From Peptococcia bacterium (lineage in GTDB: Bacteria; Bacillota; Peptococcia; Peptococcales; SKKY01): 64,000 bases of DNA. Below, piece by piece: positions 20,560-54,922 of this stretch. The stretch is taken from positions 1,588,023 through 1,652,022 of the forward strand of contig OZ245787.1 in NCBI GenBank assembly GCA_965228015.1. The letters run 5' to 3'. The notes under the pieces are model-generated. The model worked only from the letters and a program-made list of their open reading frames with translations, was not told the origin of the DNA and did not search any database. Within the stretch, counting starts at the first letter, position 1. Every line of letters begins with the position of its first letter. Made by a program: the position numbers and the translations under genes.

Positions 20560-20677
20560 AAAATACCATCCTTCCCTTTTCAGAATAAAATATAAATTAA
20601 CCACATTCCTTAAAGTTTACCCCAAAAGGTGGTAAAATAAAAAGAAAATAACCCGCTGATTTGGGGACGTTTTGGTG

Positions 20678-21973: not shown

Positions 21974-22038
21974 GACTATTTCTAAAATCAGCGCGTTATC
22001 CACAGGCAGAGAAATTTTAAGGATATGAGGATATAGAA

Positions 22039-22795: not shown

Positions 22796-22817
22796 ATTGC
22801 ACTAAATAGAACTGGTC
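22784..22817. repeat. Half copy (right arm) of the DnaA-box palindromic repeat
   Basis: CCCTGTGGATAAATTGCACTAAATAGAAC, identical to the right arm of the copy at 26571-26600; the left arm is absent. Confidence 0.6.
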
Positions 22818-24115: not shown

Positions 24116-24200
24116 CACCAAAGCGTCCCCTGCGGAGCTGATTTGCCTCTTTGTTTTTAATTTGTTTTATGTTATTATTTTTTAGATTGAAGGTGATATT

Positions 24201-26527: not shown

Positions 26528-26531
26528 AATA

Positions 26532-26600
26532 GGGGAAGCTTCCATTTGGTGCAATTTATCCACAGCCTCAACCCTGTGGATAAATTGCACTAAATAGAAC
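26532..26600. repeat. DnaA-box palindromic repeat (full copy) abutting IS copy B
   Basis: GGGGAAGCTTCCATTTGGTGCAATTTATCCACAG cctcaac CCTGTGGATAAATTGCACTAAAT; perfect TTATCCACA at 26556-26564 and TGTGGATAA at 26575-26583. Confidence 0.7.
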
Positions 26601-26605
26601 TGGTC

Positions 26606-27902
26606 TGACCCCCAAAAATTACACAAAATTGGGACAGTAAGATATACTAATTTTGGGGGCTGATTTTAATGACAAAGAACTATTCTAATGAATTTAAACT
26701 CTCTGTAATTAAGGAATATTACGAAAGCAATCTTGGGGCAAGAAAGATTACTGCAAAGTACAATTTATCTTCAAAAAATCTTGTTCTTAATTGGGAAAAA
26801 CAATTAAAAGAAAAAGGACTTCTTCCAACAGAAGCTAAGAAAGATCCGGATAAGATAAAAATCAGATCAGATAAAATAGATTTTCCTGAGAAAACACAAA
26901 GAGAAATTGAATACGAAAAAGAAATAGAACATCTTTATGCTAAAATTGAATACTACGAACAATTAGAGCATTTACAGCCCTTTATTTCTAAAAAAACAAA
27001 AGTCAGGGAGCTAAAGTACAGAGCTATATTTGCTTTGGAATTTAAATATACAGTAAAATTTTTTTGCGAAATTGCTGGAGTAAAAAGAAAAGCCTATTGC
27101 AATTTCAGAGACAAACCAATAAAAAAAGAAGATCCCATTGAGAAAATAATTATTCAAATATATAACAAATCAAAAGGAATTTTTGGTTACAGAAGAATAG
27201 GAAATGAGCTAAGAAATGCATTTAAAATAGTTGTTAATCATAAAAAGATTCAAAGAATAATGCAGGAAAACAATCTCAGATCCAGAATCAGAAGAAAAAA
27301 GAATAGGATTCAAGATGATAAACAATTCAAAGCCAATATATTAAACAGGGATTTTAAGGCAAGTCGCCCAGGAGAAAAAATAGCCACAGATATTACCTGT
27401 ATTCCTTACAGAAACTCTAAGCTATATCTGTGTGTTGCCCTAGATCTGTTTAACAATAAACCGGTAAGCTGGGAATACAGTAAGAATCCTGACAGCAAGC
27501 TGACTGTAAAAACTATTGAAAAACTTTCAAAAAGATAGATATTAAGAATACTGTTATCCATAGCGATCAAGATGTTCAATACACAAGCAAAGAATATTCC
27601 AGCTATTTAAAGTCTTTAGGAGCAGTTCAAAGTATGTCCAGAAGAGGAAATTGCTGGGATAATGCGAAGATTGAAAGTTTCTTTAGCCATTACAAAACAG
27701 AAAGTATTAATCTCTACAAAAAAAGAATCAAAAGTTTTAAAGATATAAAAGAAATTACTGAAGATTACATTAAATTTTATATTAATGACAGGACGCAAAG
27801 AAGCCTTGGAGGTGTCCCTCCAAGGCTTCTATAAACAGATTTTTTCATTTAATTAATTTGGTGAAATTTACTGTCCCAGAAGTGTACCCTTTTTGGGGGT
27901 CA
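26606..27902 (+). mobile_element. IS3-family insertion sequence, dominant type, copy B
   Basis: Same IRs as copy A; splits prs from pth. Confidence 0.85.
26669..27834 (+). pseudogene. IS3-family transposase, frameshifted
   Basis: ORFs 26669-27538 and 27634-27834; the A run at 27529-27533 has 5 A where other copies have 6 (..KLSKKIDIK..). Confidence 0.8.
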
Positions 27903-27939
27903 CACCAAAGCGTCCCCTAAAAAATGAAAGGATCTTTTT

Positions 27940-28560
27940 ATGTATGTGATTGTTGGCCTGGGGAATCCCGGGAAAAAATATGAGAATACGAAGCATAATG
28001 TTGGCTTTTGGGTTATTGATGCCTTGGCTGAAAAAATGGGAATTTCCCTGGACAAGAAAAACTGTAGCGCAATTTCAGGCACAGGAATTTACCAAGGGAA
28101 AAAAGTTCTTCTTGCCAAGCCTCAAACCTATATGAACCTTAGCGGTGAGGCGGTAATTCAACTTTTGAATTACTACGACAACCTGAATGAACTTCTGATT
28201 ATCCATGACGACCTTGATCTTGCTGAAGGGGTAATCCACTTTAAGGAAGGCGGGGGACTTGCGGGACACAATGGTCTAAAATCCATTGCCCATCATCTTC
28301 ATTCCAATGATTTTGACCGCCTCCGGGTAGGAATCGGCCGTCCAGAATTTCAAAAAGTTGTAAATTATGTACTGGAGTCTTTTTCAAAAGAAAAACAAGA
28401 GTTTTTAGATGAAGCAGTAAAAGCCACCATTCCTGGCGTTGAAACCTGGCTGGAACAGGGAATCCAGAAAGCCATGAATCAATTCAACCAGAAAAAAGAA
28501 AAAGAAAAAAATAAAGAAGAAACTAAAGAAAATAAAAAAGAGACTGAAGCTAATGAATGA
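27940..28560 (+). CDS. pth: Peptidyl-tRNA hydrolase with Lys/Glu-rich C-terminal tail
   Basis: MYVIVGLGNPGKKYENTKHNVGF.., GHNGLKSI; about 25 extra residues QKKEKEKNKEETKENKKETEANE. Confidence 0.9.
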   Translation: MYVIVGLGNPGKKYENTKHNVGFWVIDALAEKMGISLDKKNCSAISGTGIYQGKKVLLAKPQTYMNLSGEAVIQLLNYYDNLNELLIIHDDLDLAEGVIHFKEGGGLAGHNGLKSIAHHLHSNDFDRLRVGIGRPEFQKVVNYVLESFSKEKQEFLDEAVKATIPGVETWLEQGIQKAMNQFNQKKEKEKNKEETKENKKETEANE

Positions 28561-31500
28561 GATGAGTACCCAAGTGGATTTCCGCCAATTCTTAAGCCTG
28601 GAAAAACTGGATCAGCGACTTCTTAATCTGCCAAAACACACCTTGATTTATGGTTTAGATGACCATAAAAAAGCAATTTTGGCAGCTTTGTTATGGTCAA
28701 AATCAGGAATATTTATATTCAAAAATGAAAAGAAAACAAAATATTTTCTGGAAAAGTTCCAGGAAACCGGCGTGGGAAGCTGCTACTACTACCCAGCGGA
28801 AGAGCGAATTCCCTTTGAAGTATTCGCCAAAAGTAAGGATATCGAAAGCCAGAGAGCGGAAGTTCTAACCCGCCTGGCAAACGACGAAAAAATTATTGTC
28901 TTCGCCAGCATTCAGGCTATCCGTCGCAAACTCAACCCCCTGGCAGACTACAAAAAACATTATACAACTAAAAACCGGAGACACCCTGGATCTGAAGGAT
29001 TTCACATCCCACCTTATTCAGGCCGGCTTTGAGCGGAAAGAAATGGTAATAAAGCCAGGAGATTTCAGCATCCGCGGGGGAATCATCGACATTTTCCCTG
29101 TAATTTCTAACAATCCCCTAAGAATCGAACTTTTTGATGACGAAATAGATTCCATCAGAACCTTTGATCTGAACCCTCAAAAATCCTTTGAGAAAACAAA
29201 CCAGATTCTTGTTGGACCCACCAGGGAGTTTATTTGTCCCACCCTCACGGAAGTTCCCCAGGCTCTGGAGAAAGATTACCGGGAACAGCTAGCCCGCTAT
29301 GAGGAATCAGAAAGAAAAAATGACACCCTGAATTTCAAAAATGCAGCTTTGAATTTCAAAAACTTCTACGGGCAAATTAAAGAAAAAATACAAAATAACC
29401 TGTGCGTTAATGAAGAAGAGTATCTTTATCACTACCTCTTCTCCCAGGATACGACGATTCTGGACTATTTCCCAAACAATGCCCGAATCTACATTGATGA
29501 ACCAAAAAGAGTTATCTCCGCCCTGGAGCTTTTGGAAAAAGAAGAAGGAAAAATTTACACAGACCTCCTGAAAAAAGGTCGGGTTTTAAAATATCAGCAA
29601 AAAATTTACAGCACAATAGAAGAACTTGCCCCAATTTTTAAAGAAAAAGAAACTGTTTTCATGGCACTCCTTCCAACATCAGGAGCCTTTGAAATACCTT
29701 TTTCCCAGCGAATTAACGGAGATTTTCTTGGAGACGCAATTCCCTTCTTCAACAAGACAGACCATCTTTTTCGCTTTATGGAAGACAAAACAAAAAAGGC
29801 TACCGCACAATTCTGGCCATCCACAGCAAAGGAAACCGGGAAGCTCTAATTAAGGAAACTCATCACTATAAAACAACAATATCCGATTTTAAAAACCAGC
29901 AGGAATCGGGAATATATTTTGCTCACCTGAACCTGGAAAAAGGTTTTGAAGATAAAAAAGGCAAGACCCTCTTTATTACGGAACTGGATATTTTCAACAA
30001 GAAAAAGAAAAAACCCGCCAGATTTATAACAAAGATGCAGAGCGTATCGGCTCCGTTTTCGAGCTGGAAATTGGGGATTTTGTGGTTCACTCATCCCACG
30101 GTATTGGCCAGTATTTCGGCATCAACACCCTAGAAGTGGAGGGAATAAAAAAAGATTACCTTCTTATTAAATATAAAGGGGAGGACAAACTTTACGTCCC
30201 GGTTGAGCAGGTTCACAATCTTCAAAAATTTATAGGCAGTGAGGAAAAACGCCCTAAGCTAAACAAACTTGGAGGCAGCGAATGGCAGCGTACTAAAGCA
30301 AAAGTTCAAAAATCTATTGAAGATATGTCTGAAGAGCTTCTTGAACTTTATGCCCAGCGTACAATGAACCAGGGATTTGCCTTTTCTCCAGATGATTTTA
30401 TGCAGCAGGAGTTTGAAGATAACTTCCCCTACGAAGAAACTCAAGATCAGCTTCGTGCCATTATGGAAATCAAAAAAGATATGGAAAATCCAACTCCAAT
30501 GGATCGTCTCCTTTGCGGCGACGTAGGATACGGAAAAACTGAAGTTGCAATGAGAGCAGCCTTTAAAGCAGTGCGGGACAGCAAGCAAGTGGCAGTCTTG
30601 GTGCCTACAACAATTCTGGCAGAGCAACACTTTCAGTCTTTCAGCAAACGATTTGAAGGATTTCCTGTAAAAGTTGAAGTACTAAGCCGATTTAAATCAC
30701 CGAAGGAAGAAGTGGAGATTAAGGAAGACGCAGCCAAAGGTAAGGTGGACATCCTTATCGGCACCCACAAGCTCCTCTCCAACACCTTGAAATTTAAGGA
30801 TTTAGGACTTCTAATCGTAGATGAAGAGCAACGCTTTGGGGTAAAAGATAAAGAAAAAATTAAGCAAATAAAAGCATTTGTGGACGTTCTCACACTATCA
30901 GCAACCCCAATACCCAGAACACTGCAAATGTTTCTGGCAGGACTTAGGGATATGAGCTTAATTGAAACACCACCAAAAAACCGTTATTCAATTCAAACCT
31001 TCGTAGTAGAAAAAACGATGAACTTTTAAGAGAAGTCATTCTTCGTGAGCTTGGAAGAGAGGGACAGATTTTCTACGTTCAAAACCGGGTTCACGACATC
31101 TATTTAGAAGCAGGGAAGCTGATGGAAACGGTTCCAGAAGCCTCCTTCGCCGTTGCCCACGGTCAGCTTAAGGAACATGAACTGGAAAAAACAATGATCG
31201 AATTTATGGAAAAAGAAAAAGACTGTCTTGTCTGCGCCACTATCATCGAAACCGGTCTGGACATTCCCAACGTTAACACTCTGATAGTGGACGAAGCTGA
31301 TAAATATGGTCTCTCCCAGCTTTATCAGCTTCGAGGCAGGGTAGGCCGCAGTGAAAGGGTTTTATCTGCCTCACATACAAGGCAGATAAAACCCTTTCAG
31401 AAAACGCTGAAAAGCGTCTGAAAGCTATCAAAGATTTCGCCGAACTGGGATCCGGCTTTAAAATTGCCATTCGTGACTTGGAAATCCGGGGTGCGGGAAA

Positions 31501-32094
31501 TCTTCTGGGCAAGGAACAGCACGGACACCTTGATGCCATCGGCTTCGCCCTTTACACTCAGATGCTTCAGGAAACTATTCAGGATCTGAAAATTAAAAAG
31601 AAAAAAGAAGCAGGAGAGTTTACTCAGGAAGATGCAATCAAGAGTAGAGACAGGGAGCAGGAAATATCTCTGCCCATCAGCGCCCTTATCCCGGAAGAAT
31701 ATATTCGGAACCACGGCCTGAAACTGGAGTTCTATCAGAAAATTAAAATGCCCCAACAGAGGATGTTCTTATAGATGTCACCGACGAGCTTATTGACCGT
31801 TTTGGAGATTTCCCCGAAGAAGTTGCCAACCTCATTTCTCTTGGTGAGATCCGCATTAAAATGGAAAAGCTGGGAATTTCATCTCTGAAATTGAAAAATA
31901 ACACTCTGGAGTTTCTAATTTCAATAGATGCCTCCCTGGATCCTAAAACAATTTTAAAACTTTCTGAAAACTTTAAGAATCAAGTGTCATTTAAGGATGA
32001 CAATGGTTTTATGATAAGATATAGTATAAAATACACCAATAAAGAAGAACTTCTGAGATACATAGAAGATTTTCTAAAACATTTAGGAGGCTAA
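28553..32094 (+). pseudogene. mfd: Transcription-repair coupling factor, full length but broken by six frame changes
   Basis: Pieces 28553-, 28896-, 29798-, 30082-, 31122-, 31478-, 31861-32094 together cover about 1170 aa ([58 protein letters not shown]). Breaks at A runs 28952-57, 29792-97, 30008-13, 31010-15, 31354-56, 31745-48. Confidence 0.85.
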
Positions 32095-35917: not shown

Positions 35918-35926
35918 AAAGGCGGA

Positions 35927-36000
35927 GGGGATGTTTCTATTTTGATCGCGTTTTCCACAGGATAGCCCCTGTGGAAAACGCGATCAAAATAGAACTGGTC
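35927..36000. repeat. DnaA-box palindromic repeat (full copy) abutting IS copy C
   Basis: GGGGATGTTTCTATTTTGATCGCGTTTTCCACAG gatagcc CCTGTGGAAAACGCGATCAAAATAGAAC; boxes TTTTCCACA at 35951-35959 and TGTGGAAAA at 35970-35978. Confidence 0.7.
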
Positions 36001-37297
36001 TGACCCCCAAAAATTACACAAAATTGGGACAGTAAGATATACTAATCTTGGGGGCTGATTTTAATGACAAAGAACTATTCCGATGAATTTAAACTCTCTG
36101 TAATTAAGGAATATTACGAAAGCAATCTTGGGGTAAGAAAGATTACTGCAAAGTACAATTTATCTTCAAAAAATCTTGTTCTTAATTGGGAAAAACAATT
36201 AAAAGAAAAAGGACTTCTTCCAACAGAAGCTAAGAAAGATCCGGATAAGATAAAAATCAGATCAAATAAAATAGATTTTCCTGAGAAAACACAAAGAGAA
36301 ATTGAATACGAAAAAGAAATAGAACATCTTTATGCTAAAATTGAATACTACGAACAATTAGAGCATTTACAGCCCTTTATTTCTAAAAAAACAAAAGTCA
36401 GGGAGCTAAAGTACAGAGCTATATTTGCTTTGGAATTTAAATATACAGTAAAATTTCTTTGCGAAATTGCTGGAGTAAAAAGAAAAGCCTATTGCAATTT
36501 CAGAGACAAACCAATAAAAAAAGAAGATTCCATTGAGAAAATAATTATTCAAATATATAACAAATCAAAAGGAATTTTTGGTTACAGAAGAATAGGAAAT
36601 GAGCTAAGAAATGCGTTTAAAATAGTTGTTAATCATAAAAAGATTCAAAGAATAATGCAGGAAAACAATCTCAGATCCAGAATCAGAAGAAAAAAGAATA
36701 GGATTCAAGATGATAAACAATTCAAAGCCAATATATTAAACAGGGATTTTAAGGCAAGTCGCCCAGGAGAAAAAATAGCCACAGATATTACCTGTATTCC
36801 TTACAGAAGCTCTAAGCTATATCTGTGTGTTGCCCTAGATCTGTTTAACAATGAGCCAGTAAGCTGGGAATACAGTAAGAATCCTGACAGCAAGCTGACT
36901 GTAAAAACTATTGAAAAACTTTCAAAAAAGATAGATATTAAGAATACTGTTATCCATAGCGATCAAGGTGTTCAATACACAAGCAAAGAATATTCCAGCT
37001 ATTTAAAGTCTTTAGGAGCAGTTCAAAGTATGTCCAGAAGAGGAAATTGCTGGAATAATGCGAAGATTGAAAGTTTCTTTAGCCATTACAAAACAGAAAG
37101 TATTAATCTCTACAAGAAAAGAATCAAAAGTTTTAAAGATATAAAAGAAATTACTGAAGATTACATTAAATTTTATATAAATGACAGGACGCAAAGAAAC
37201 CTTGGAGGTGTCCCTCCAAGGTTCTATAAACAGATTTTTTCATTTAATTAATTTGGTGAAATTTACTGTCCCAGAAGTGTACCCTTTTTGGGGGTCA
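36001..37297 (+). mobile_element. IS3-family insertion sequence, dominant type, copy C
   Basis: Same IRs; lies between hup and the S4-domain gene. Confidence 0.85.
36064..37251 (+). CDS. IS3-family transposase, uninterrupted ORF (395 aa)
   Basis: Full-length with HSDQGVQYTS and RRGNCWNNAKIESFF. A 1-nt difference near the 3' end lengthens the tail relative to copy A. Confidence 0.85.
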   Translation: MTKNYSDEFKLSVIKEYYESNLGVRKITAKYNLSSKNLVLNWEKQLKEKGLLPTEAKKDPDKIKIRSNKIDFPEKTQREIEYEKEIEHLYAKIEYYEQLEHLQPFISKKTKVRELKYRAIFALEFKYTVKFLCEIAGVKRKAYCNFRDKPIKKEDSIEKIIIQIYNKSKGIFGYRRIGNELRNAFKIVVNHKKIQRIMQENNLRSRIRRKKNRIQDDKQFKANILNRDFKASRPGEKIATDITCIPYRSSKLYLCVALDLFNNEPVSWEYSKNPDSKLTVKTIEKLSKKIDIKNTVIHSDQGVQYTSKEYSSYLKSLGAVQSMSRRGNCWNNAKIESFFSHYKTESINLYKKRIKSFKDIKEITEDYIKFYINDRTQRNLGGVPPRFYKQIFSFN

Positions 37298-37329
37298 CAC
37301 CAAAGCGTCCCCTGAAGGAGGTGGGCGGC

Positions 37330-40633: not shown

Positions 40634-40707
40634 CCTGAATTTATTCTAGAGAAAGCAGAATGAATTAAAGTTAAATTATTGTTATTTTTATGTTAAGGGG
40701 AATTAAG

Positions 40708-42417
40708 ATGTACAAAGCAGTAGAAAAAATTATCCGCAGAAAATGGGACACGTCCCTTGGAATGAAAAGGGGAAACGGTTGCGAACACGGAAACATCCCC
40801 AGCGCAAGTGATGCAAGCGGGGACACTTCTAGAGATGTGAAAATTTCCAGAGTTGAGGGAAGTTCCCCCCCACCCGTTATCATTTTAGGCCTTTCAGGTG
40901 GTCCCGATTCCATGGCCCTTTTCCATATATTAAATAAATTAAGGGAAAAATATTCCTTTAAACTTGTTGCGGCTCACGTGAACCACATGTTCCGGGGAGA
41001 AGAGGCGGATGAGGAAGAAGCCTATCTGCAAAAAATGGTTAAAGAACTTGTCTCTCAGTCAGATGCCGGCTTGACCATTGAAACTCTTCGAGTGGATGTA
41101 AAGAAAATCGCTCAGGAAAGAAAACTTTCTAATCAGGATGCCGGACATCAGGTGCGGAAAGAATTTTTTCAGATGCTTAGTAAAAAATATGATGCAGATT
41201 ATGTTTTTCTCGCTCATCATCAAGATGACCGGGTTGAGAGTTTTTTTCTTCATCTTCTTCATGGCGCCGGAGTTCAGGGCTTAACGGCTCTTTCGAAAGT
41301 GGAGAATTACGGTGAAGATGGAAGCGGGTTGAAAGTAATCAGGCCATTAATAGGATTTTCCAAGGATGAGATTCTTAAATTTTGCCAGGAGCAGGGGATT
41401 TTCTATTTCAAAGATCCCAGCAATGAAAAGGCTTTGTACAATAGGAATAAAATTCGCTTGGAACTGATACCCCAGCTGGAGCAAGAATATAATCCGAAGA
41501 TTAAGGATGTAATTCTTCGCAGTGTGGAGATTCTTGAAGACGAAGATGCTTTTTTGAATGATGTAGTTCAGGAAAAGTACCAAGAGCTTGTTCGGGAGAA
41601 TTTTTCAGAGGAAGTGGCGCTGCTACTTTTAGATAAGAAAGAATTCCAAAAATTTCATAAAGGAATCCAACAGCGCCTTGTGATAAAGATTTTAAATAAA
41701 TTAGCTCCAGGAGAAGTCGGATATAACTTTGAAAAGATTGAAAAAATCCTGGAGCTTTTAAATGAAGAAAAAGGGCAGCGAAGGTACAAACTTTCCCACA
41801 ACTCCTGGCTGGAAGTGGGCTACGAGGAAGGAAAGTTTGTGCTGTATCCTCAACGGGAATCAGCTGAAAATGTCGAGGATGCAGGAAGCCATTTCGATTT
41901 TGACGTGGACATCGAAATGGACATCCACGTCGATGTCCATTTCGATAAAATCGAAATGGAAGGCCCCCTCACCTTTCAGGCCGGGGGCCAAAGCTTCACC
42001 TTCGCTGCTGTCGCAGCTGGGACGCTTCCATTCTCAGCGGGTTTTTCACATCCCCAACCTTGTGGAAAACCCGCGGAAAAAAGAAGCGTCCCAGCTTCCG
42101 CGCTGATTTTTGCTCCGGGGAAGCTTACCCTCCGCACCCGTCGGGATGGGGATGTCATTAAACCCGCCGGGGGGAAGACTAAAAAGCTGAAGAAATTTTT
42201 TATGGAGAAAAAAATTCTTCAAAATGAGCGGGACAAGATCATCCTCCTGGCCTCCGGCAAGGAAATCATCTGGATCCCCAACATGGTCATCTCCCAAAAC
42301 TATCTTCCGGAAAATCCTGCAGATTGTGTCTCTAATAAAAACAATCTTGAACAGAGTGGAAAAAAAATGTTAAAAGTCTTCTGGAGGGGGAAAGAGAGTT
42401 TGAAAAATAGCCCCTGA
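40708..42417 (+). CDS. tilS: tRNA(Ile)-lysidine synthetase with repeat-derived insertions
   Basis: PP-loop LSGGPDSMAL, HHQDDRVESF, C-terminal RTRRDGDVIKPAGG..KKLKKFF; about 100 aa longer than usual because of inserts at about 40745-40875 and 41880-42140. Confidence 0.85.
   Translation: MYKAVEKIIRRKWDTSLGMKRGNGCEHGNIPSASDASGDTSRDVKISRVEGSSPPPVIILGLSGGPDSMALFHILNKLREKYSFKLVAAHVNHMFRGEEADEEEAYLQKMVKELVSQSDAGLTIETLRVDVKKIAQERKLSNQDAGHQVRKEFFQMLSKKYDADYVFLAHHQDDRVESFFLHLLHGAGVQGLTALSKVENYGEDGSGLKVIRPLIGFSKDEILKFCQEQGIFYFKDPSNEKALYNRNKIRLELIPQLEQEYNPKIKDVILRSVEILEDEDAFLNDVVQEKYQELVRENFSEEVALLLLDKKEFQKFHKGIQQRLVIKILNKLAPGEVGYNFEKIEKILELLNEEKGQRRYKLSHNSWLEVGYEEGKFVLYPQRESAENVEDAGSHFDFDVDIEMDIHVDVHFDKIEMEGPLTFQAGGQSFTFAAVAAGTLPFSAGFSHPQPCGKPAEKRSVPASALIFAPGKLTLRTRRDGDVIKPAGGKTKKLKKFFMEKKILQNERDKIILLASGKEIIWIPNMVISQNYLPENPADCVSNKNNLEQSGKKMLKVFWRGKESLKNSP
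42019..42092. repeat. IS-free copy of the DnaA-box palindromic repeat, inside the tilS ORF
   Basis: GGGACGCTTCC attctca GCGGGTTTTTCACA tccccaac CTTGTGGAAAACCCGC ggaaaaaa GAAGCGTCCC; outer 10-bp and inner stems pair. Confidence 0.7.
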
Positions 42418-42503
42418 TGTGATAAAGTCTATTAGTATCTTTATAAATAGTTAAAAAAGTAATAAATAGCAAAAAACGATTTCAACTTGGAAGGAGAGCG
42501 TTC

Positions 42504-44429
42504 GTGAACAGAGTTTTTAAGAATCTGGCAATTTACTTATTAATAGTTTTAATTGCTGTAACTGCTTTACGGCTGACTACAACTCCTGAGGTTCAGGCTG
42601 CCCCTTTTGGCGCTTTCTCTGAATTTATGGATGCTGCTGAGGCAGGTCAGATCAAGCAGGTTAAAATAGTCACCGAGGATAATTACCAGAAAATAGATGG
42701 AGTAACAACCGACGACAGAAGTTTTTCTATAGAAGCCCCCAAGGGTTATAACGGCCTAATCGATGTAATGCGTGAAAATAAAGTTATTATCGACCAAGAG
42801 CCAACACCAGTACCACCACTGTGGTTGAGCATTATCACCAGTCTTCTGCCAATCTTGCTGATTGTAGGAATATTTTTCTTCGTTATGCAGCAAGGTCAGG
42901 GTGGCGGCGGCCGTGTTATGCAATTCGGCAAAAACAGAGCCAAACTTCAATCTGAAGATAAAGTCAAAGTTACATTTAAAGATGTTGCCGGTGCAGATGA
43001 GGTAAAAGAGGAACTGGAGGAAATTGTTGAGTTTCTTAAAACACCCAAAAAGTTCGTCGCCCTGGGAGCAAAAATCCCCAAAGGTGTCCTTCTTTTCGGA
43101 CCTCCGGGAACAGGTAAAACCTTACTTGCCAGAGCTGTAGCAGGAGAAGCAGGGGTTCCTTTCTATACAATAAGTGGTTCCGATTTCGTGGAAATGTTTG
43201 TTGGTGTAGGGGCATCCCGTGTTAGAGATTTATTCGAACAGGCTAAAAAAACATCACCTTGTATAGTATTTATAGATGAAATCGACGCCGTTGGTCGTCA
43301 AAGAGGCGCAGGTCTTGGGGGTGGTCACGATGAGAGAGAACAGACTTTGAACCAGTTATTGGTAGAGATGGATGGTTTCGATGCTAATCAAAGCGTTATC
43401 GTAATCGCAGCAACAAACAGACCTGACATCCTGGATCCAGCCCTACTAAGACCGGGAAGATTTGACAGACAGGTTACTGTAGATCGCCCTGATGTTGTTG
43501 GCAGGGAAACAATTTTGAAAGTTCACATGAGAAACAAGCCAATTGCTGAAGATGTTGACACAAGGATTCTTGCTAAAGGAACGCCAGGCTTCACAGGGGC
43601 AGATCTTGCCAACTTGGTAAACGAAGGTGCCTTGCTTGCAGCGAGAAAAGGATTGAAAAAAATCCATATGAAGGAACTTCAGCAGTCAATTGAAAGAGTA
43701 ATCGCCGGACCAGAGAAAAAATCCCGGGTTATCAGCGAATATGAAAAAAATATCGTAGCTTATCACGAAACAGGCCACGCCCTGGTTGCAGCAAAGCTGG
43801 AGCACGCAGATCAGCTGCACAAAGTTACTATTATTCCAAGGGGAAGAGCTGGTGGATATACACTATTCCTGCCTAAGGAAGATGCAAATTACGTAACCAG
43901 AAGCCAGCTTATTGATAAAGTAACCACTCTTCTTGGAGGGCGGGTTGCAGAGCAGGTAGTTCTTAAGGAAATCAGCACAGGAGCATCAAATGACCTGGAA
44001 AGAGCCACAGAAACTATTCGCAGAATGATCACTGAGTGGGGTATGTCCAAAGAACTTGGTCCAATGACCTTTGGTAACAAAAAGGATCAGGTATTCCTGG
44101 GCAGAGATATCGCCAGAGACAGAAATTACTCCGAAGCCGTTGCTTTTTCTATAGATAAAGAAGCCAGAGCGATGATCGAAGAGTGTTATCAGAAGGCAGA
44201 GAAGATTCTTACAGAGAATATGGACGCCCTGGTTCTTATCGCCGAAACTCTTAAAGAAAGAGAAACCATTGACGCCAAAGAATTCTTTGCGCTGATGGAA
44301 GGCAAGGACGACGTTTTTGAAGAAGTAGACAGAATCGAAAAAGAAAGATATCAACAAACACCAGCAGAGGAAAAACTTCCTGGGGATGAAGTTGTCCCGG
44401 AAGATCCTATAGAGAAAAAAGAAGAGTAA
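42504..44429 (+). CDS. ftsH: ATP-dependent zinc metalloprotease FtsH
   Basis: 641 aa, GTG start after GGAAGGAG; [16 protein letters not shown], zinc site HETGHAL. Confidence 0.95.
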
Positions 44430-44948: not shown

Positions 44949-44979
44949 AAAAGACCGCTGATTAGGGGACAGTTTGGTG

Positions 44980-46277
44980 TGACCCCCAAAAAGGGTACAC
45001 TTCTGGGACAGTAAATTTCACCAAATTAATTAAATGAAAAAATCTGTTTATAGAAGCCTTGGAGGGACACCTCCAAGGCTTCTTTGCGTCCTGTCATTAA
45101 TATAAAATTTAATGTAATCTTCAGTAATTTCTTTTATATCTTTAAAACTTTTGATTCTTTTCTTGTAGAGATTAATACTTTCTGTTTTGTAATGGCTAAA
45201 GAAACTTTCAATCTTCGCATTATCCCAGCAATTTCCTCTTCTGGACATACTTTAAACTGCTCCTAAAGACTTTAAATAGCTGGAATATTCTTTGCTTGTG
45301 TATTGAACACCTTGATCACTATGGATAACAGTATTCTTAATATCTATCTTTTTTGAAAGTTTTTCAATAGTTTTTACAGTCAGCTTGCTGTCAGGATTCT
45401 TACTGTATTCCCAGCTTACCGGTTTATTGTTAAACAGATCTAGGGCAACACACAGATATAGCTTAGAGTTTCTGTAAGGAATACAGGTAATATCTGTGGC
45501 TATTTTTTCTCCTGGGCGACTTGCCTTAAAATCCCTGTTTAATATATTGGCTTTGAATTGTTTATCATCTTGAATCCTATTCTTTTTTCTTCTGATTCTG
45601 GATCTGAGATTGTTTTCCTGCATTATTCTTTGAATCTTTTTATGATTAACAACTATTTTAAACGCATTTCTTAGCTCATTTCCTATTCTTCTGTAACCAA
45701 AAATTCCTTTTGATTTGTTATATATTTGAATAATTATTTTCTCAATGGAATCTTCTTTTTTTATTGGTTTGTCTCTGAAATTGCAATAGGCTTTTCTTTT
45801 TACTCCAGCAATTTCGCAAAGAAATTTTACTGTATATTTAAATTCCAAAGCAAATATAGCTCTGTACTTTAGCTCCCTGACTTTTGTTTTTTTAGAAATA
45901 AAGGGCTGTAAATGCTCTAATTGTTCGTAGTATTCAATTTTAGCATAAAGATGTTCTATTTCTTTTTCGTATTCAATTTCTCTTTGTGTTTTCTCAGGAA
46001 AATCTATTTTATCTGATCTGATTTTTATCTTATCCGGATCTTTCTTAGCTTCTGTTGGAAGAAGTCCTTTTTCTTTTAATTGTTTTTCCCAATTAAGAAC
46101 AAGATTTTTTGAAGATAAATTGTACTTTGCAGCAATCTTTCTTACCCCAAGATTGCTTTCGTAATATTCCTTAATTACAGAGAGTTTAAATTCATCGGAA
46201 TAGTTCTTTGTCATTAAAATCAGCCCCCAAGATTAGTATATCTTACTGTCCCAATTTTGTGTAATTTTTGGGGGTCA
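44980..46277 (-). mobile_element. IS3-family insertion sequence, dominant type, copy D (inverted)
   Basis: Same IRs; same transposase lesions as copy E (shared nonsense codon and NKPVSW variant); palindromic repeat on its left-end (inner) side. Confidence 0.85.
45048..46214 (-). pseudogene. IS3-family transposase with nonsense codon
   Basis: ..SLGAV*SMSRRGNCWDNA: TAA replaces the CAA of other copies; ORFs 45252-46214 and 45048-45248. Confidence 0.8.
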
Positions 46278-46349
46278 GACCAGTTCTATTTAGTGCGGGC
46301 TATCCACAAGAGTTACCCTGTGGATAGCCCGCTGATTTTGGAAGCGTCC
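46278..46349. repeat. DnaA-box palindromic repeat (mirror image of 53461-53531), with a 9-bp duplication at its outer end
   Basis: GTGCGGGCTATCCACAAGAGTTACCCTGTGGATAGCCCGCTGATTTTGGAAGCGTCC; boxes at 46300-46308 and 46319-46327. GAAGCGTCC (46341-46349) is repeated at 49551-49559. Confidence 0.7.
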
Positions 46350-46511
46350 GTTAGTGTAAAATAATTATGGGTAAAAAAACAAAAAAATATTAGAGCAACT
46401 CCTTATGTTACAATTAAATCGCTAAACCAAATCGCAAAAAAGGAGAAACTCTAATGAATAATAGGGGGGTGCGGACAAAAACCTGGACTAAAAATACAGG
46501 AGGATGTCCAT

Positions 46512-47288
46512 ATGTATTCCTACGAAGAAAAAATTAAAGCTGTAAAATTATTAATTAAATATGACAAATGTTATGCACAAGTAATGCGGGAGTTAGGATA
46601 CCTAGATAGAAAATCCCTAACGGCGTGGTACAAACAATATTTAAGTAATGGTGACTTAATTAAAGAATGTGAAAGAAAAGCAAAATTTTCTGAAGAAGAA
46701 AAATACAGAGCTGTTAATCATTATTTAGAACACGGAAAATGTGTACGACGCACTACAAGAATTCTTGGATATCCAAGCAGACCTACTCTTGATAAATGGA
46801 TACTAGAATTGGTGCCTGAACAAAAGAAATATTGTCGCTCAGGTAACGCATTGATAAAATATACTCGTGAACAAAAAGAAGCAGCAGTTATAGCTTTATG
46901 CTCACGGGAAAAATCGGCCAGAGAAGTAGCGAATGAAATTGGCATTACCTGTGAGAGGCTTTATAGTTGGAAAAATCAGCTTCTAAAAAAAGGGTGGAAT
47001 AGGACAATGCCAAAAAAAGATAAAGTATCCCCAAAAGTGAAAACTAATATTAGTGATGATCAAGCAAAATTATTATTAAAAGAAAAAGATGTTCTTTTAA
47101 AACAAGTGGAAGAATTAAAAAAGGATATATATCATCTTCAGTTAAAAAGAGATATTTTGGAAAAAGCAGCAGAAATAATAAAAAAAGATAAGGGCATTAG
47201 CATAAAAACACTTTCTAATAGTGAAAAAGCCATGGCGATTAATGCCCTAAGAGAGAATTTTTTTAAAAGATTTATTGATAATTCTTAA
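46512..47288 (+). CDS. IS3-family transposase, N-terminal part (HTH and leucine zipper)
   Basis: 258 aa; two HTH-like segments, coiled coil ..LLKQVEELKKDIYHLQLKRDILEKAAEIIKK. Confidence 0.75.
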   Translation: MYSYEEKIKAVKLLIKYDKCYAQVMRELGYLDRKSLTAWYKQYLSNGDLIKECERKAKFSEEEKYRAVNHYLEHGKCVRRTTRILGYPSRPTLDKWILELVPEQKKYCRSGNALIKYTREQKEAAVIALCSREKSAREVANEIGITCERLYSWKNQLLKKGWNRTMPKKDKVSPKVKTNISDDQAKLLLKEKDVLLKQVEELKKDIYHLQLKRDILEKAAEIIKKDKGISIKTLSNSEKAMAINALRENFFKRFIDNS

Positions 47289-48084
47289 CATGGCAAAAAG
47301 TAGCTATTTTTATCAGGATTTTGTATTAAGTAAAGAAGATAAATATTCCAGTTTACGTAATAAAATTAAAGAAGTTTTTATTGAATCTTCAAAACGTTAT
47401 GGTTATCGAAGAATTCATTCAGTTATAAAGAAAACCGGTATAATTATTTCAGAAAAAATTGTTAGAAGAATTATGAAAGAAGAGAAACTTTCAATACCAG
47501 GCATTAAGAAAAAGAAATACAACTCATATAAAGGTGAGATAAGCCCTGTAATGCCAAATTTGTTGAAACACAATTTTCATGCTGATAAACCAAACCAGAA
47601 GTGGCTAACAGATCTAACCGAGTTCCATATTCCTGCCGGGAAAATATATCTTTCTCCAATTATTGACTGCTTTGATGGGCTGCCAGTCAGTTGGAGTATT
47701 GGAACCTCTCCTGATGCCACATTGGTAAATACAATGTTAGACAAAGCCATCAGCACTTTAAATAAAAATGAAAGACCTATAGTACATACAGATCGTGGAG
47801 CACACTATCGTTGGCCTGGCTGGATTGAGAGAATGAAAAAAGCTCATCTTGTTCGTTCTATGTCAAAGAAAGGTTATTCTCCAGATAATTCTGCATGCGA
47901 GGGTTTCTTTGGCAGAGTAAAAAACGAAATGTTTTATGGATATTCATGGAAAGAAGTCACAATAAAACAATTTATTGAAATATTAGATGAATATTTAAGG
48001 TGGTATGCAGAAAAAAGAATTAAAATTTCCTTTGGGGGAATGAGTCCATTGACTTATAGAAAAAGCTTAGGTTTAATTGCTTAG
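47275..48084 (+). CDS. IS3-family transposase, catalytic part (rve/DDE)
   Basis: ..WLTDLTEF.., HTDRGAHY, YSPDNSACEGFFGRVKNE. It lies in the +1 frame relative to the upstream part and would fuse if the T7 run 47258-47264 were T6. Confidence 0.75.
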   Translation: MIILNMAKSSYFYQDFVLSKEDKYSSLRNKIKEVFIESSKRYGYRRIHSVIKKTGIIISEKIVRRIMKEEKLSIPGIKKKKYNSYKGEISPVMPNLLKHNFHADKPNQKWLTDLTEFHIPAGKIYLSPIIDCFDGLPVSWSIGTSPDATLVNTMLDKAISTLNKNERPIVHTDRGAHYRWPGWIERMKKAHLVRSMSKKGYSPDNSACEGFFGRVKNEMFYGYSWKEVTIKQFIEILDEYLRWYAEKRIKISFGGMSPLTYRKSLGLIA

Positions 48085-48108
48085 GTCCAAAAAAACGTCC
48101 ACACCCCC

Positions 48109-49489
48109 ATATTATACATGAAATTGCAACTAAAATCAGTAAAGAAATAGCAGAAAATATGGAAACAACTTTAATTGAGGGAAATAATATATCTGAATTC
48201 ATTTTAAAAACCAAAAAAATGCTGGATGAAGTTGGGGTTGCAATTACAGAAAAAGTACTTGAAACTGTAGATATTTTAGTTAAAAAAGATTGTGCAAGAA
48301 AAAGAGACTGGAAAATAAAGGAAACAAAGTCGAAGAAAAGTTTGGCGACGATATTTGGTGAAGTAACCTATAAAAGAACGTATTATGTTTATAAAATTAC
48401 CGGTGAATATAAATACTTATCTGATGAAGCTGTTGGTATTGAAGCAAATGACAGAATGGATATATTGCTAGAATCAATGTTAATAGAAGAAGCAATAGAG
48501 ATACCATACAGAAAAAGTAGCGAAAAAATATCGAAGAATGTATATCTTACTAGTCAAACAGTAATGAATTCTATTAGAAAGCTTAAAGATATTTCTAATC
48601 ATGCAGCACCAGTGAAAAAAACTGATTCTCAAGCTAAGATTTTGTACATCGAAGCTGATGAAGATCATGTTTCACTTCAAAGAGGAACATGTGCCGAACC
48701 TAGATTAATTTATGTTCACGAAGGTAAGTGAAAGGTAAGTAAAGATAGATATGAATTAATAAATCCCAGATACTTTAGTGGTCTCTACCAAGATAGTGCT
48801 GATTTATGGCTTGAAGTAGCTGATTATATTGATAGCAACTATGAAGAAGAAACTATCGAAAAGATATATTTATCAGGAGATGGAGCCAACTGGATAAAAC
48901 AAGGCAAAGAATGGATTAAAGATAGTATCTATGTTTTAGATAGATACTATTTGTCGAAATATATAAAGAAGGCAACTGCTCATATGAAAGGCACACACCA
49001 AATGATGTGGTATTACATAAATACGAAAAGGAAAGATTTCGTAAAAGATTTATTCAAAGCAATAATTGAAGAAACAGAATCAGAAACAAAAAATAGAAGC
49101 AATAAAAGATGCTAGAAGTTATGTGTTAAATAATTGGGAAGGTATAATGAATCAATATGACCCGGATTATATAGGCTGTAGCACAGTAGGCCATATTAGT
49201 CATATATTATCTGCAAGATTAAGTTCAAGGCCTCTAAGCTGGTGCAGAGAAGGTGTTGATCAAATGTCACGTCTGAGGGCTTTTAAGGCTAATTCAGGTA
49301 ATGTATATGATTTAGTAAAAGAAAGAAGCAAGAAAAACAGAAACAAGAATCATAAAATTAGAAAGCCGTGTTATAAAAAAAGCTACGAACCTAATATCAG
49401 ATGAGAAATTCGGTAATGTGCCAGTAGTTTTAATTGGCAAGAGAACTTGGAAAAGAGAATTATTTAAAAGGATAGCGAGTGCGATTTAG
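48109..49489 (+). pseudogene. ISLre2-family transposase, main part (first three codons at 46454-46463); nonsense plus frameshifts
   Basis: ..RKRDWKIKETKSKKSLATIFGEVTYKRTYY..; in-frame TGA at 48730 (..VHEGK*KVSKDRYELINPRYF); frame changes near 49090 and at the A7 run 49375-49381. Confidence 0.7.
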
Positions 49490-49566
49490 CACGTAATACA
49501 TACAAGGAGTTTTTTTATTCTTTTAAAACCCATAATTAATTGACACGATCGAAGCGTCCCCTCCGC

Positions 49567-51715: not shown

Positions 51716-51729
51716 TTCTGGGACGTTTC

Positions 51730-53460
51730 GAGACCAGTGAAAAAGTCTTTCTTTAAAAGAAGATTCTTCCCTTTTCAGCAAAATAAGACTATTTTTTTAA
51801 ATTCCAAATTTGATTTAAAAAATTGCACTCTAAAGAGGATAGTATTGATGCTATCCTCTTTATGTTTACCGCAATTGCTGCCAGCTTCGATTGAACAGAC
51901 ACACTTAAGAGACCATATCCTCTTGCACGACATAGTCCGTGAAATCTTTTTAGCTCGGCATTCTTGCCTTCAATGCTTGCTCTCTTCTTGTACTTTTCTT
52001 TAAACTCTTCCGTTTTTTGTTCTTAAGATATTTCATAATATTCTCCAGTATTTAAACCAGTTGTGAAAATTTCTCGTGCTTTTTTACCAGCACATTGATC
52101 ATGCTTTGGGCAATTTTTACACTGCTTTGCTTCAAAATAATAATTGTAATATCCATAGCCTAAAGAATAAAATGTTTCTTTCCTTTTAAAATATCTCTTT
52201 TTTACACTTATGTTTCCTTGGCTACATTCCCATTCGTCCGAATCTTTGTTGTATGAAAATCCATTTTCATCAATTCTGTAAGCTGACCCACTTGCTGGAA
52301 TAAAGGCTTTTGCTTTTAATTCCTTTATTGAATCTAAAATGTTTTTTCTGAAATAAGCTTTGTCTCCATATACTTCTTTTACAGAAACTCCTGCTTTTAT
52401 GGTCTCTTCAAGCATTTCCTCTGTTAAATCTCCATCAGTATATACCCCATCTCCGGTTCTAACGCAGGTAATTAATCTTTCTTCTGTAGTCATAATAAAT
52501 TCTGTTTTATAGCCAAAAAAGTCTTGGCTTTTACTTTTTCTGCCAACACGAGCATCTTCATCTATTAATGAACGTACTCCTTTTTGATTTATGAACTTGG
52601 GATCATTTAATATATTTTTAGCTTTTTCAATAATAGAATTGGTTTTGAGTAGCTCTGTATTTTTTCTGCTTCATAGATTACTTTTTCTAAGTAATCTATC
52701 ATTACTGCTTTTGCTTCTTTATGGTCTTCAATCTCCTTGTACTCTGGAACATCAGGAAGACCGGGTAGTTTTTCTTCTGTTTCTTCTTCATATGTATTTA
52801 TAATTTTTTAGCAAGATGTTTCGTTAATCTTTCCGGGGTTTTTATTGTATTGGCTTCTATATGTGTAGCACCAATACTTACACTATTTCCTTCAATAATT
52901 TTTTGTTCAACACATTGGCGAATAATTTCTGTAATAATTTCATCTAATGTGGAGTTTTGAAGTCTTTGGGTTCTGAATTTTGAGAGGAGACTTTTATCTG
53001 GGAGGGATTCTTCGGGATTGATTCCTAAAAAATACATATATGCTAAATTAAGTTCTGCTTCCTGTATAACCTTTTCGTCAGAAAGGTTATACAGGAAGCT
53101 GCAGGAAAAGAAGTTTACACATTAATTCTGGTTCTTTGGCTGGTCTGCCAAAAGTTTTGCAGTAGCTGTTTTTCCAATAATTTATTAATAAAGCTGAAAT
53201 TTACTACAGATTCTATTCTTTTTAATATATGATTTTCAGGTATTTTATTATATAATTGTAAATATAAAGAAATTTGCTTTGATTTTAATCTAAGCATAAA
53301 AAGCCCACCATTTTGGTTTATTTTGTTTTGGTAGATAAATTATACCATAAAAAGGTGGGCTTTTTTCTGTTTTCTTAGATATATCAACGCTTTCAGCTTT
53401 TTTAGTATAAAAATTTGTCCTTCACCTTTAACTTAAAGAAAGGCTTTTTCACTGGTCTCG
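51730..53460 (-). mobile_element. IS1182/IS5-like element, heavily degenerate
   Basis: IRs CGAGACCAGTGAAAAAGTCTTTCTTTAA / TTAAAGAAAGGCTTTTTCACTGGTCTCG. Flanks are inverted copies of a CGCTGATT..GGACG motif, so the true IRs may be longer. Confidence 0.65.
52023..53297 (-). pseudogene. IS1182-family (DUF772 N-terminal, DDE) transposase fragments
   Basis: Fragments 53115-53297 (..LYNKIPENHILKRIESVVNFSFI), 52798-53037, 52023-52493 (..YGDKAYF.., Cys-rich ..KQCKNCPKHDQC); the C-terminal part downstream is also broken. Confidence 0.65.
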
Positions 53461-53531
53461 GACGCTTCCAAAATCAGCGGGCTATCCACAGGGTAACTCT
53501 TGTGGATAGCCCGCACTAAATAGAACTGGTC
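53461..53531. repeat. DnaA-box palindromic repeat abutting IS copy E
   Basis: GACGCTTCCAAAATCAGCGGGCTATCCACAG ggtaactc TTGTGGATAGCCCGCACTAAATAGAAC; boxes at 53482-53490 and 53501-53509. Confidence 0.7.
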
Positions 53532-54829
53532 TGACCCCCAAAAATTACACAAAATTGGGACAGTAAGATATACTAATCTTGGGGGCTGATTTTAATGACA
53601 AAGAACTATTCCGATGAATTTAAACTCTCTGTAATTAAGGAATATTACGAAAGCAATCTTGGGGTAAGAAAGATTGCTGCAAAGTACAATTTATCTTCAA
53701 AAAATCTTGTTCTTAATTGGGAAAAACAATTAAAAGAAAAAGGACTTCTTCCAACAGAAGCTAAGAAAGATCCGGATAAGATAAAAATCAGATCAGATAA
53801 AATAGATTTTCCTGAGAAAACACAAAGAGAAATTGAATACGAAAAAGAAATAGAACATCTTTATGCTAAAATTGAATACTACGAACAATTAGAGCATTTA
53901 CAGCCCTTTATTTCTAAAAAAACAAAAGTCAGGGAGCTAAAGTACAGAGCTATATTTGCTTTGGAATTTAAATATACAGTAAAATTTCTTTGCGAAATTG
54001 CTGGAGTAAAAAGAAAAGCCTATTGCAATTTCAGAGACAAACCAATAAAAAAAGAAGATTCCATTGAGAAAATAATTATTCAAATATATAACAAATCAAA
54101 AGGAATTTTTGGTTACAGAAGAATAGGAAATGAGCTAAGAAATGCGTTTAAAATAGTTGTTAATCATAAAAAGATTCAAAGAATAATGCAGGAAAACAAT
54201 CTCAGATCCAGAATCAGAAGAAAAAAGAATAGGATTCAAGATGATAAACAATTCAAAGCCAATATATTAAACAGGGATTTTAAGGCAAGTCGCCCAGGAG
54301 AAAAAATAGCCACAGATATTACCTGTATTCCTTACAGAAACTCTAAGCTATATCTGTGTGTTGCCCTAGATCTGTTTAACAATAAACCGGTAAGCTGGGA
54401 ATACAGTAAGAATCCTGACAGCAAGCTGACTGTAAAAACTATTGAAAAACTTTCAAAAAAGATAGATATTAAGAATACTGTTATCCATAGTGATCAAGGT
54501 GTTCAATACACAAGCAAAGAATATTCCAGCTATTTAAAGTCTTTAGGAGCAGTTTAAAGTATGTCCAGAAGAGGAAATTGCTGGGATAATGCGAAGATTG
54601 AAAGTTTCTTTAGCCATTACAAAACAGAAAGTATTAATCTCTACAAGAAAAGAATCAAAAGTTTTAAAGATATAAAAGAAATTACTGAAGATTACATTAA
54701 ATTTTATATTAATGACAGGACGCAAAGAAGCCTTGGAGGTGTCCCTCCAAGGCTTCTATAAACAGATTTTTTCATTTAATTAATTTGGTGAAATTTACTG
54801 TCCCAGAAGTGTACCCTTTTTGGGGGTCA
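53532..54829 (+). mobile_element. IS3-family insertion sequence, dominant type, copy E
   Basis: Same IRs; identical ORF translations and the same nonsense codon as copy D. Confidence 0.85.
53595..54761 (+). pseudogene. IS3-family transposase with nonsense codon
   Basis: TAA at 54555-54557 in place of CAA; ORFs 53595-54557 and 54561-54761. Confidence 0.8.
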
Positions 54830-54922
54830 CACCAAAGCGTCCCCTCCGCTTTGCAAAAAATTTACATTAATTAATTTGCCTTGTATAGTCTTAATTGATA
54901 AAATATCCGAGTAAATTTAATT

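Follow-up and report, generated by a model that had tools for sequence, protein, structure and literature searches.

The subject of this study is a palindromic DNA repeat that lies in frame within the gene tilS, in a stretch of 64,000 nucleotides from a Peptococcia bacterium (contig OZ245787.1, positions 1,588,023 to 1,652,022; hereafter the window). The gene occupies 40708-42417 on the + strand. Although the enclosing open reading frame (ORF) extends from 40690 to 42417 and has 575 codons, the conserved sequence MYKAVEKII places the real start at 40708, which gives a protein of 569 amino acids with intact PP-loop and TilS_C domains (Pfam matches at residues 64-257 and 479-545, respectively). 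The nearest solved relative of this protein is the TilS of Geobacillus (3A2K). The repeat is a complete, hairpin-forming element of 82 bp at 42015-42096 (+ strand), free of insertion sequences (ISs), which encodes residues 444-468 of ORF 40690-42417 (GTLPFSAGFSHPQPCGKPAEKRSVP; 25 residues).

An in-frame palindromic element in tilS

The outer stem of the element is formed by 42015-42028 and 42083-42096 (AGCTGGGACGCTTC / GAAGCGTCCCAGCT) and the inner stem by 42037-42050 and 42061-42074, which enclose a loop at 42051-42060. An initial annotation, made from the letters of the sequence, had read the palindrome as 42019-42092. That reading is exact, but the palindrome is actually four bases longer on each side (AGCT/AGCT). 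These tetramers are an extension of the stem and not a direct repeat, because they are self-complementary and are replaced in one orthologous locus (L003) by GCGGAG/CTCCGC. Folded as RNA, the element forms one long nested hairpin (-55.2 kcal/mol, z = -8.1), and its opposite strand folded as DNA gives z = -7.1; in both cases none of 200 shuffled sequences was as stable. The annotation had also described this segment as richer in GC than the rest of the gene, and we find values of 0.56-0.59 over 41950-42150 compared with roughly 0.31-0.50 in most of the remaining tilS. Likewise, the three additional open frames reported across the segment exist (41762-42106 on the + strand, and 41976-42158 and 42046-42297 on the - strand).

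The proposal that the tilS sequence belongs to the same family as intergenic repeats is borne out by two approaches. A repeat finder places it with copies at 26531, 35926, 46284 and 53457 (families D14/D15). Moreover, a covariance model (A5/R1) whose training set comprised 26 intergenic copies from other genomes and no tilS copies gives 42011-42100 as its top match in the window (77 bits, E ~5e-17), whereas the IS-interrupted copies in the window score 35-57 bits. Because of this score we regard the tilS copy as a formal member of the family; the alignment to the intergenic repeats, which had been named as a point where the proposal might fail, is highly significant. The window holds five copies with a recognisable inner hairpin, in addition to several fragments. 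Four of the five are split by an IS, and the tilS copy is therefore the only complete and uninterrupted one, as its description as an IS-free copy implied. An Rfam scan of the whole window returned one tRNA only and nothing for the element. A scan for promoters and terminators over 41800-42560 gave no more matches than were found in shuffled sequences, and its sole terminator-like match is weak, antisense, at the level of shuffles, and overlaps the right arm of the element.

The consequences of the insertion for the protein were examined by structure prediction. In an AlphaFold2 model of TilS (116 sequences, mean predicted local distance difference test score, or pLDDT, of 82), residues 444-466, which correspond to 42019-42087, have pLDDT values below 50 and are bordered by confident strands at residues 434-441 and 470-474. 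Typical Firmicute TilS proteins lack about 20-25 residues at this position. According to the model, translation of the element gives a disordered loop of 25 residues that lies between two beta-strands, shortly before the C-terminal domain, in agreement with the earlier suggestion of a surface loop between domains, and as such a loop the element would be tolerated by TilS. A further claim, that family motifs continue through 42093-42135, is correct for the AGCT at 42093-42096, which is part of the element, but not for 42097-42135, which is native TilS sequence. The latter segment was rejected as a set of element motifs in that it encodes confident strands (residues 470-482) running into the Pfam TilS_C match, and in that no conservation of DNA motifs is evident there in loci L001-L003.

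The element accounts for only part of the unusual length of this protein. The initial annotation estimated an excess of roughly 100 residues, and typical homologues indeed have about 455-475. The extra residues are the sum of four additions, namely the remnant of an N-terminal insert, an acidic palindromic repeat, the element itself, and a C-terminal tail. At 41889-41959 there is an inverted array of 10-mers (CCATTTCGAT / ATCGAAATGG) with a perfect 15-bp inverted repeat (41911-41925 / 41932-41946). This array is translated as the acidic stretch DFDVDIEMDIHVDVHFDKIEM, has pLDDT values below 50, and varies in length among close relatives. The C-terminal tail runs into a conserved block upstream of ftsH and seems to have arisen by read-through of sequence that controls ftsH. 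The nucleotide block at ~42335-42510 is almost invariant from the window to L024, a locus whose TilS is 47% identical, and it covers the final ~25 codons of tilS (NKNNLEQSGKKMLKV..KESLKNSP) together with the tilS-ftsH spacer. Within it, the promoter scan gives a promoter-like site, TTGAAA-17-TAAAGT with an upstream TG, and a second promoter-like site, TTGAAC-17-TGTTAAAAGT, was spotted by eye.

Age of the insertion and level of constraint

A search of 5.8 billion proteins yielded 13 other TilS cluster representatives (P0002-P0014) with identities of 39-86%, and DNA was retrieved for nine orthologous loci. In seven of these (L001-L007, with TilS identities of 55-86%), the palindrome is found at identical tilS codons (G-T-L ... 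R-S/N-V-P), and the flanks of the copy are shared across lineages (FTF ... LR(T/N)R). The stems themselves vary in a manner that retains pairing. For example, the outer stem GGGACGCTTC/GAAGCGTCCC is changed to GGGACGTTTC/GAAACGTCCC in the L002 copy by compensatory substitutions, the paired inner stems differ between L001 (CACTTTTT/AAAAAGTG) and L002 (CTCG/CGAG), and the stem extension of the window is exchanged in L003 for the hexamers given above. In an alignment of eight tilS copies, 84.9% of cells are paired compared with 36-48% in controls with slid partners. Double changes occur in 10 of the 36 stem pairs, and none of 500 shuffles reached such covariation.

The two remaining loci are more divergent. 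In L025 (42% TilS identity), the family is represented by a diverged form (GGGGACGCAACATTCTGT...), and a single shortened palindrome is located at the same tilS site (model R1, E = 5e-5). It adjoins an older relic of a left arm, and the tilS copy is of the L025-type sequence. For L024, no palindrome or relic was detected in tilS by the repeat finder, the covariance model or pairwise alignment, a result that fits both decay and original absence, and the family is present elsewhere at this locus only as weak matches. Members of the family occur elsewhere on their own contigs in L001, L002, L004-L007 and L025, and a split copy occurs in L003. The initial annotation had reasoned that homologous residues in orthologues from genomes without the repeat family would speak against an insertion; every orthologue examined as DNA that has homologous residues also carries the family. 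We conclude that the insertion in tilS is ancient and maintained as DNA, not recent, and that it dates from the ancestor of the clade.

Alternatively, there might have been no single ancient insertion, if this site in tilS is a hot spot at which the current element of each genome has inserted, or replaced an earlier copy, independently in different lineages. Consistent with this scenario, the L001 tilS copy is 0.82-0.90 identical to copies in its own genome compared with 0.69-0.78 to other tilS copies, and its loop, which is conserved across the family as GGGTYRAGGY, is flipped with respect to the other tilS copies. The short palindrome of L025 type next to an older left-arm relic could be explained in the same way, and tilS was hit again near its N-terminus in the lineage of the window (see below). 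However, the junction codons and flanks are the same in all lineages, and no empty site exists within the clade among the orthologues recovered by the protein search. Loop flips, moreover, can also arise through recombination between the arms of a palindrome. Repeated independent insertion at this position is thus unlikely.

Whether selection acts on the nucleic acid or on the peptide was assessed by comparing residues and codons among the window, L001, L002 and L003. Identity at the level of amino acids is no higher in the element (0.57) than in the rest of tilS (0.60), whereas the fraction of identical codons at conserved residues is far higher in the element (0.83) than elsewhere (0.51). 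The only other 25-codon windows that equal this value are located in the 3' tail of tilS. In addition, intergenic copies use TTATCCACA/TGTGGATAA in their inner stems, and in the tilS frame the resulting TGT GGA TAA would be read as a stop. All eight tilS copies instead use TGTGGAAAA, which is paired with TTTTCCACA in seven of the eight, whereas the window has TTTTTCACA. The stop codon is thus avoided in the tilS copies with a matched change in the opposite arm. Given the high codon identity, the compensated avoidance of a stop, and the low pLDDT of the loop, we conclude that it is the DNA palindrome that is conserved and not the peptide, such that it is the nucleic acid that is constrained, whereas the loop formed by the peptide is tolerated.

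The converse possibility is that the peptide is a functional module of TilS under protein selection and that the symmetry of the DNA is incidental. A peptide motif, GTLP..FPQP.PCGK..KRSVP, does recur in TilS cluster representatives P0001-P0008. Nevertheless, the conserved residues are exactly those specified by invariant stem bases, the segment is predicted to be disordered, and the same DNA is present at dozens of non-coding sites. Furthermore, the window has lost an N-terminal copy of the element and has kept its ORF. In view of these observations and of the identity values given above, a role for the peptide is extremely improbable.

A function of the hairpin in tilS mRNA was also considered, wherein it would influence stability, processing, or translational pausing between the TilS domains or ahead of ftsH. 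As RNA, the hairpin is very stable, and it has a conserved position that precedes the C-terminal domain and lies some 400 nt upstream of ftsH. Against such a function, copies of the element are found in either orientation and chiefly in intergenic DNA, the L001 tilS copy has an inverted loop, there is no Rfam match, and the only terminator-like pattern is the weak antisense one mentioned above. G-T-compatible mismatches are also not consistently on the sense strand. We attempted to use the asymmetry of these mismatches to distinguish a sense-strand RNA or a single DNA strand, and abandoned it as a test since the pattern is mixed across copies even after they are oriented by the loop. An mRNA-based function therefore appears very unlikely.

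The element has entered tilS more than once. In L004-L007, another full in-frame copy is present near the N-terminus of TilS, between VEKIIR and the PP-loop strand (in L004 at 2948-3038, 68 bits). The window carries a remnant of this copy at 40734-40756 on the + strand (CCGCAGAAAATGGGACACGTCCC) and lacks 60 nt of it, with deletion endpoints at CCGCGGA direct repeats. The N-terminal copy is absent from L001-L003, and hence it arose after the first. That the window has lost it shows that such inserts are dispensable for the ORF.

A REPIN-like family and a putative transposase partner

The family comprises long-hairpin repeats of roughly 80-90 bp with the intergenic consensus AGGGGACGCTTCC-N13-TTATCCACA-N10 loop-TGTGGATAA-N13-GGAAGCGTCCCCT. 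When 185,579 species genomes and the JGI metagenome set were scanned for the exact pattern, true palindromic matches were found only in two metagenome-assembled genomes, or MAGs (a Clostridia bacterium and an uncultured Eubacteriales bacterium), in one contig binned as Sphingobacteriia, which is possibly mis-binned, and in a handful of metagenome contigs. At least nine exact-pattern copies are present in MAG CAZNNQ01. Every copy found outside of tilS is intergenic, and these copies often occupy conserved syntenic sites, for example in the HU/S4 spacer or behind ndk or prmC. Other candidates for in-frame hosts, represented by long ORFs over copies in L008, L018, L049 and L063, were rejected as upstream read-through before the real start or as spurious ORFs. 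The family is a repeated, mostly extragenic imperfect palindrome, as are repetitive extragenic palindromic (REP) sequences.

A candidate partner gene is located between ndk and prfA in L001, L003 and L024. It encodes a Y1_Tnp protein of 256-273 amino acids with a C-terminal helix-turn-helix (HTH) domain; the gene is partial at a contig end in L004, and a remnant is present in L025. The protein has the HUH and Tyr motifs, and among solved folds in the PDB it is most similar to 4ER8 (E = 4e-8), the REP-associated transposase of E. coli in complex with a REP hairpin. Its Bacillota homologues are named REP-associated tyrosine transposase (RAYT) by NCBI. A copy or half-copy of the element adjoins the 3' end of this gene in L001, L003 and L004, and on the 5' side of the slot there are remnants only (window position 49551, and L024 15280-15373 with E = 0.08). 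A DnaA domain IV in the C-terminus of the RAYT-like protein was considered and rejected, as Pfam assigns generic HTH families to this region and Bac_DnaA_C to only one of 41 homologues; the N-terminal Y1 domain dominates the Foldseek ranking. Inserted DNA divides the copy after ndk at its apex in L001 (14033-14210) and in L003 (4003-4417), such that its left half lies beside ndk and its right half beside the 3' end of the RAYT-like gene. The insert contains a terminator-like hairpin in both loci and, in L003, also a 63-aa ORF. The corresponding slot in the window (44962-49560) is occupied by a copy of an IS3-family IS, a second IS3-family element (46512-48084) and UPF0236 transposase fragments (48159-49404), and the only trace of the repeat left there besides material of an IS-split copy is a solo end at 49551.

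We favor, with a probability of roughly 0.6, the explanation that a repeat of REPIN/RAYT type (REPINs being hairpins formed by REP doublets) was fixed in frame in a loop of TilS long ago and that its palindrome has since been kept by processes acting on the whole family. Under this explanation, the family behaves like a REP/REPIN population that is served by the single-copy, syntenic RAYT-like HUH tyrosine transposase. One copy entered tilS in frame in the ancestor of the clade, and a second, younger insertion near the N-terminus followed. The palindrome would be upheld by homogenisation at the level of the family and not by a role in TilS, perhaps through gene conversion between copies or through RAYT-mediated cleavage and re-joining of single-stranded DNA hairpins. 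A tie between the tilS copy and the rest of the family is visible in L001 (values given above) and in L002, whose tilS copy is 0.85 identical to copies in its own genome compared with 0.72-0.78 to other tilS copies, and also in L025, where the tilS copy is of the changed type. The IS3-family IS would target the element family, and the tilS copy may be the only complete copy free of an IS because insertion there would destroy an essential gene.

Several observations weigh against this explanation. The RAYT-like protein scores 73.5 bits with NCBIfam REP_Tyr_transpos, just under the cut-off of 80, and no RAYT-like gene is present within the 64-kb window. The tilS copies of the window, L004 and L005 are not clearly closer to copies in the same genome (0.72-0.81) than to the tilS copies of other lineages (0.69-0.78). 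No transposition event was observed, and most copies are at conserved syntenic positions. The element also has neither the GTAG head nor the arrangement in short REP doublets that characterises classical REPINs. Finally, two consensus DnaA boxes and the loop GGGTYRAGGY are strictly conserved, which hints at a function beyond what we propose.

The best hint of a recent duplication of the element comes from L004, where two copies (8755-8844 and 9193-9282) that are 94% identical lie on either side of a PhdYeFM antitoxin-family gene (8871-9200). The pair falls within the interval from ndk to the RAYT-like gene and has a HicB-like antitoxin gene as its neighbor.

Comparison with REP/REPIN-RAYT systems (E. 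coli REPs and bacterial interspersed mosaic elements with TnpA_REP, and Pseudomonas REPINs) reveals both shared and distinct features. As in those systems, the palindromic family is almost wholly extragenic and genome-specific in sequence, persists vertically for long periods at syntenic sites, and has a candidate partner gene of the HUH-Y1 type (best solved fold 4ER8), which is single-copy and syntenic and is adjoined by a copy of the element. RAYTs of group 1 have been reported in Clostridia with about a dozen occurrences of the flanking repeat (PMC5581495), and REPs inside coding regions have also been reported (PMC3733652). The CGTC-tagged REPs of Di Nocera et al. (2013) resemble the present element in having CGTC near the element end (GAAGCGTCCCC in our case) and some members inside ORFs. 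However, these REPs have 8-9-bp stems and 4-5-nt loops, are not reported in Firmicutes and have no link to a transposase (PMC3733652), and membership of the element in this group was rejected because of the mismatch in anatomy. With regard to REPINs in general, the element differs in being one nested hairpin of ~80-90 bp with a GGGGACGC head, a twin DnaA-box apex and a conserved loop. It has neither a GTAG/CGTC head combined with an inverted doublet of short REPs nor arms that are themselves short palindromes. Copy numbers are low, as exemplified by the MAG mentioned above, the transposase has an extra C-terminal HTH domain, copies are found inside an essential gene, and mobility is putative.

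In-frame palindromic repeats are known from Rickettsia, where Rickettsia palindromic elements (RPEs) decorate many genes. The initial annotation likened the tilS insert to these elements, and as an analogy this holds for its in-frame behavior, since both are palindromic repeats within a housekeeping gene whose ORF is kept and whose insert is a predicted surface loop. Nevertheless, REP/REPIN-RAYT systems provide the better comparison. Unlike RPEs, the present family hits only tilS, at two sites, among all copies found, and it has an associated RAYT-like gene. Its palindrome is maintained, and in two genomes the tilS copy is closer to copies in the same genome than to orthologous ones. The host and the sequence are likewise unrelated to those of RPEs. 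Homology with RPEs was not found in a comparison made without direct RPE alignment, in which the family was seen only in MAGs and contigs of uncultured Clostridia and had no Rfam match.

The conserved boxes at the apex raise another possibility, that the family is a host cis-element under selection. Paired DnaA boxes, either on a hairpin or, in duplex DNA, as an inverted pair, could recruit DnaA or could bind the HTH domain of the RAYT-like protein. This could serve titration, or DnaA-dependent helicase loading or restart as at the A-site of the ABC-primosome, and the tilS copies would persist because the site matters. In the intergenic copies, TTATCCACA/TGTGGATAA is invariant or nearly so across lineages with fixed 16-nt and 10-nt spacings, the exact box is confined to these elements in the window, copies hold conserved syntenic positions, and the palindrome has been kept far beyond what saturation of synonymous sites would allow. 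A precedent exists in E. coli, where it is established that a hairpin with a DnaA box signals helicase loading (PMC6127211). The A-site is a single-stranded DNA hairpin with a DnaA box (PMC6127211), and the likeness to it, a consensus DnaA box in a hairpin stem, is purely one of sequence. However, by sequence the box is exact in most intergenic copies and degraded in the tilS copies, unlike the A-site; the consensus is lost there (TTTTCCACA/TGTGGAAAA) and is further changed in the window (TTTTTCACA). The L025 family has no such box and is still found in tilS, and the HTH of the associated protein is generic, as described above. We therefore consider selection for such a host function to be rather unlikely. 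It is more doubtful still that the elements are dispersed hairpins with paired DnaA boxes that are curated by a domesticated RAYT-HTH protein for DnaA-dependent control or restart of replication. If this were true, the function would be strong enough to preserve copies, with compensatory evolution, inside an essential reading frame.

REPs and REPINs are defined as extragenic, and it is debated whether usefulness or the difficulty of losing them accounts for their persistence. The tilS copy is a natural experiment in this respect, as it separates maintenance at the level of DNA, by homogenisation or by a trans-acting factor, from local function. It also represents a non-rickettsial case of proteins gaining loops from palindromic repeats, and as an apparently preferred IS target inside an essential gene it would constitute a built-in liability. 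New aspects of this system are the anatomy of the element, its HTH-bearing RAYT-like partner, the compensated avoidance of a stop codon, and the deep conservation of a copy in an essential gene together with its likeness to copies in the same genome.

Other copies and insertion sequences in the window

The IS-split copies share a common arrangement. An intergenic copy at 26533-26600 (+ strand) retains the left arm, the inner hairpin and part of the right arm, and is followed by an IS3-family IS at about 26601-27908 and by the right outer stem at about 27909-27918. The copy in the HU/S4 spacer (35927-35995, + strand) is split by an IS at about 35996-37303, with the right outer stem at about 37304-37313. 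In the orthologous spacer, an IS-free copy is present in L001, L002 and L005, and the L006 copy is truncated by the end of the contig. A third split copy lies at 53459-53526 (+ strand), with the IS at 53527-54834 and the right outer stem at 54835-54844. The fourth (46283-46350, - strand; IS at about 44975-46282, right outer stem at about 44965-44974) is an inverted duplicate of the third including its IS. The segments 44964-46350 and 53459-54845 (1387 nt) are reported as 100% complementary, a rounded value that includes two differences in the right outer stem. Because the ends of the duplicate coincide with the outer stems of the element, the element and IS appear to have been copied as one unit. 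The element could thus carry cargo, or the duplicate could be the product of an IS-mediated rearrangement. A solo right end (GAAGCGTCCCCTCCGC) is located at 49551-49566 (+ strand), just upstream of prfA and at the far edge of the ndk-prfA slot.

In total, the window contains six copies of this 1308-bp IS3-family IS (HTH and rve domains), which, with element ends included, span 20635-22006 (-), 22743-24134, 26531-27921, 35926-37316, 44962-46350 (-) and 53457-54848. All six abut element sequence at one relative position that follows the inner hairpin (...ATAGAAC-IS-AAGCGTCCCC). The inner stems differ among the window copies yet stay paired. The triplets flanking the IS, AAC and AAG, are not a clean duplication. 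The arrangement of the six copies suggests that the IS prefers the element as a landing site. Elements of the IS1397/ISKpn1 type, which belong to the IS3 family, target REP palindromes. The window IS is similar in that it is found at one fixed spot inside a palindromic element, but it is inserted at the foot of the right outer stem (..ATAGAAC-IS-AAGCGTCCCC) and not in the loop. An origin of the element as a miniature inverted-repeat transposable element derived from a resident IS was rejected, because the element ends (GGGACGCTTC) are unlike the inverted repeats of the IS (TGGTCTGACCCCC.. or GAGACCAGTG..) and because the flanking AGCT/AGCT extends the stem and is not a target-site duplication.

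The left outer stem of the copy at 53459 has also received an unrelated IS (51720-53468; DDE_Tnp_1 fragment at 52023-52493, inverted repeats GAGACCAGTGAAAAAG..), with an apparent 9-10-bp duplication (GGGACGTTTC / CGGACGCTTC). Elsewhere in the window, mfd (28553-32091) is broken into at least five ORFs. A tblastn search with the Mfd of L024 gives seven segments in differing frames with about six frame changes, and the neighboring genes are intact. The gene is probably a pseudogene in an IS-rich genome, with assembly error as the alternative. Within the broken mfd, where two of the tblastn segments overlap, a hairpin at 31349-31402 (GAAAGGGTTTTATCTGCCT..AGGCAGATAAAACCCTTTC) gives a weak match (22.6 bits, E = 0.002) when scored with the family model and is similar to repeats of the L025 type.

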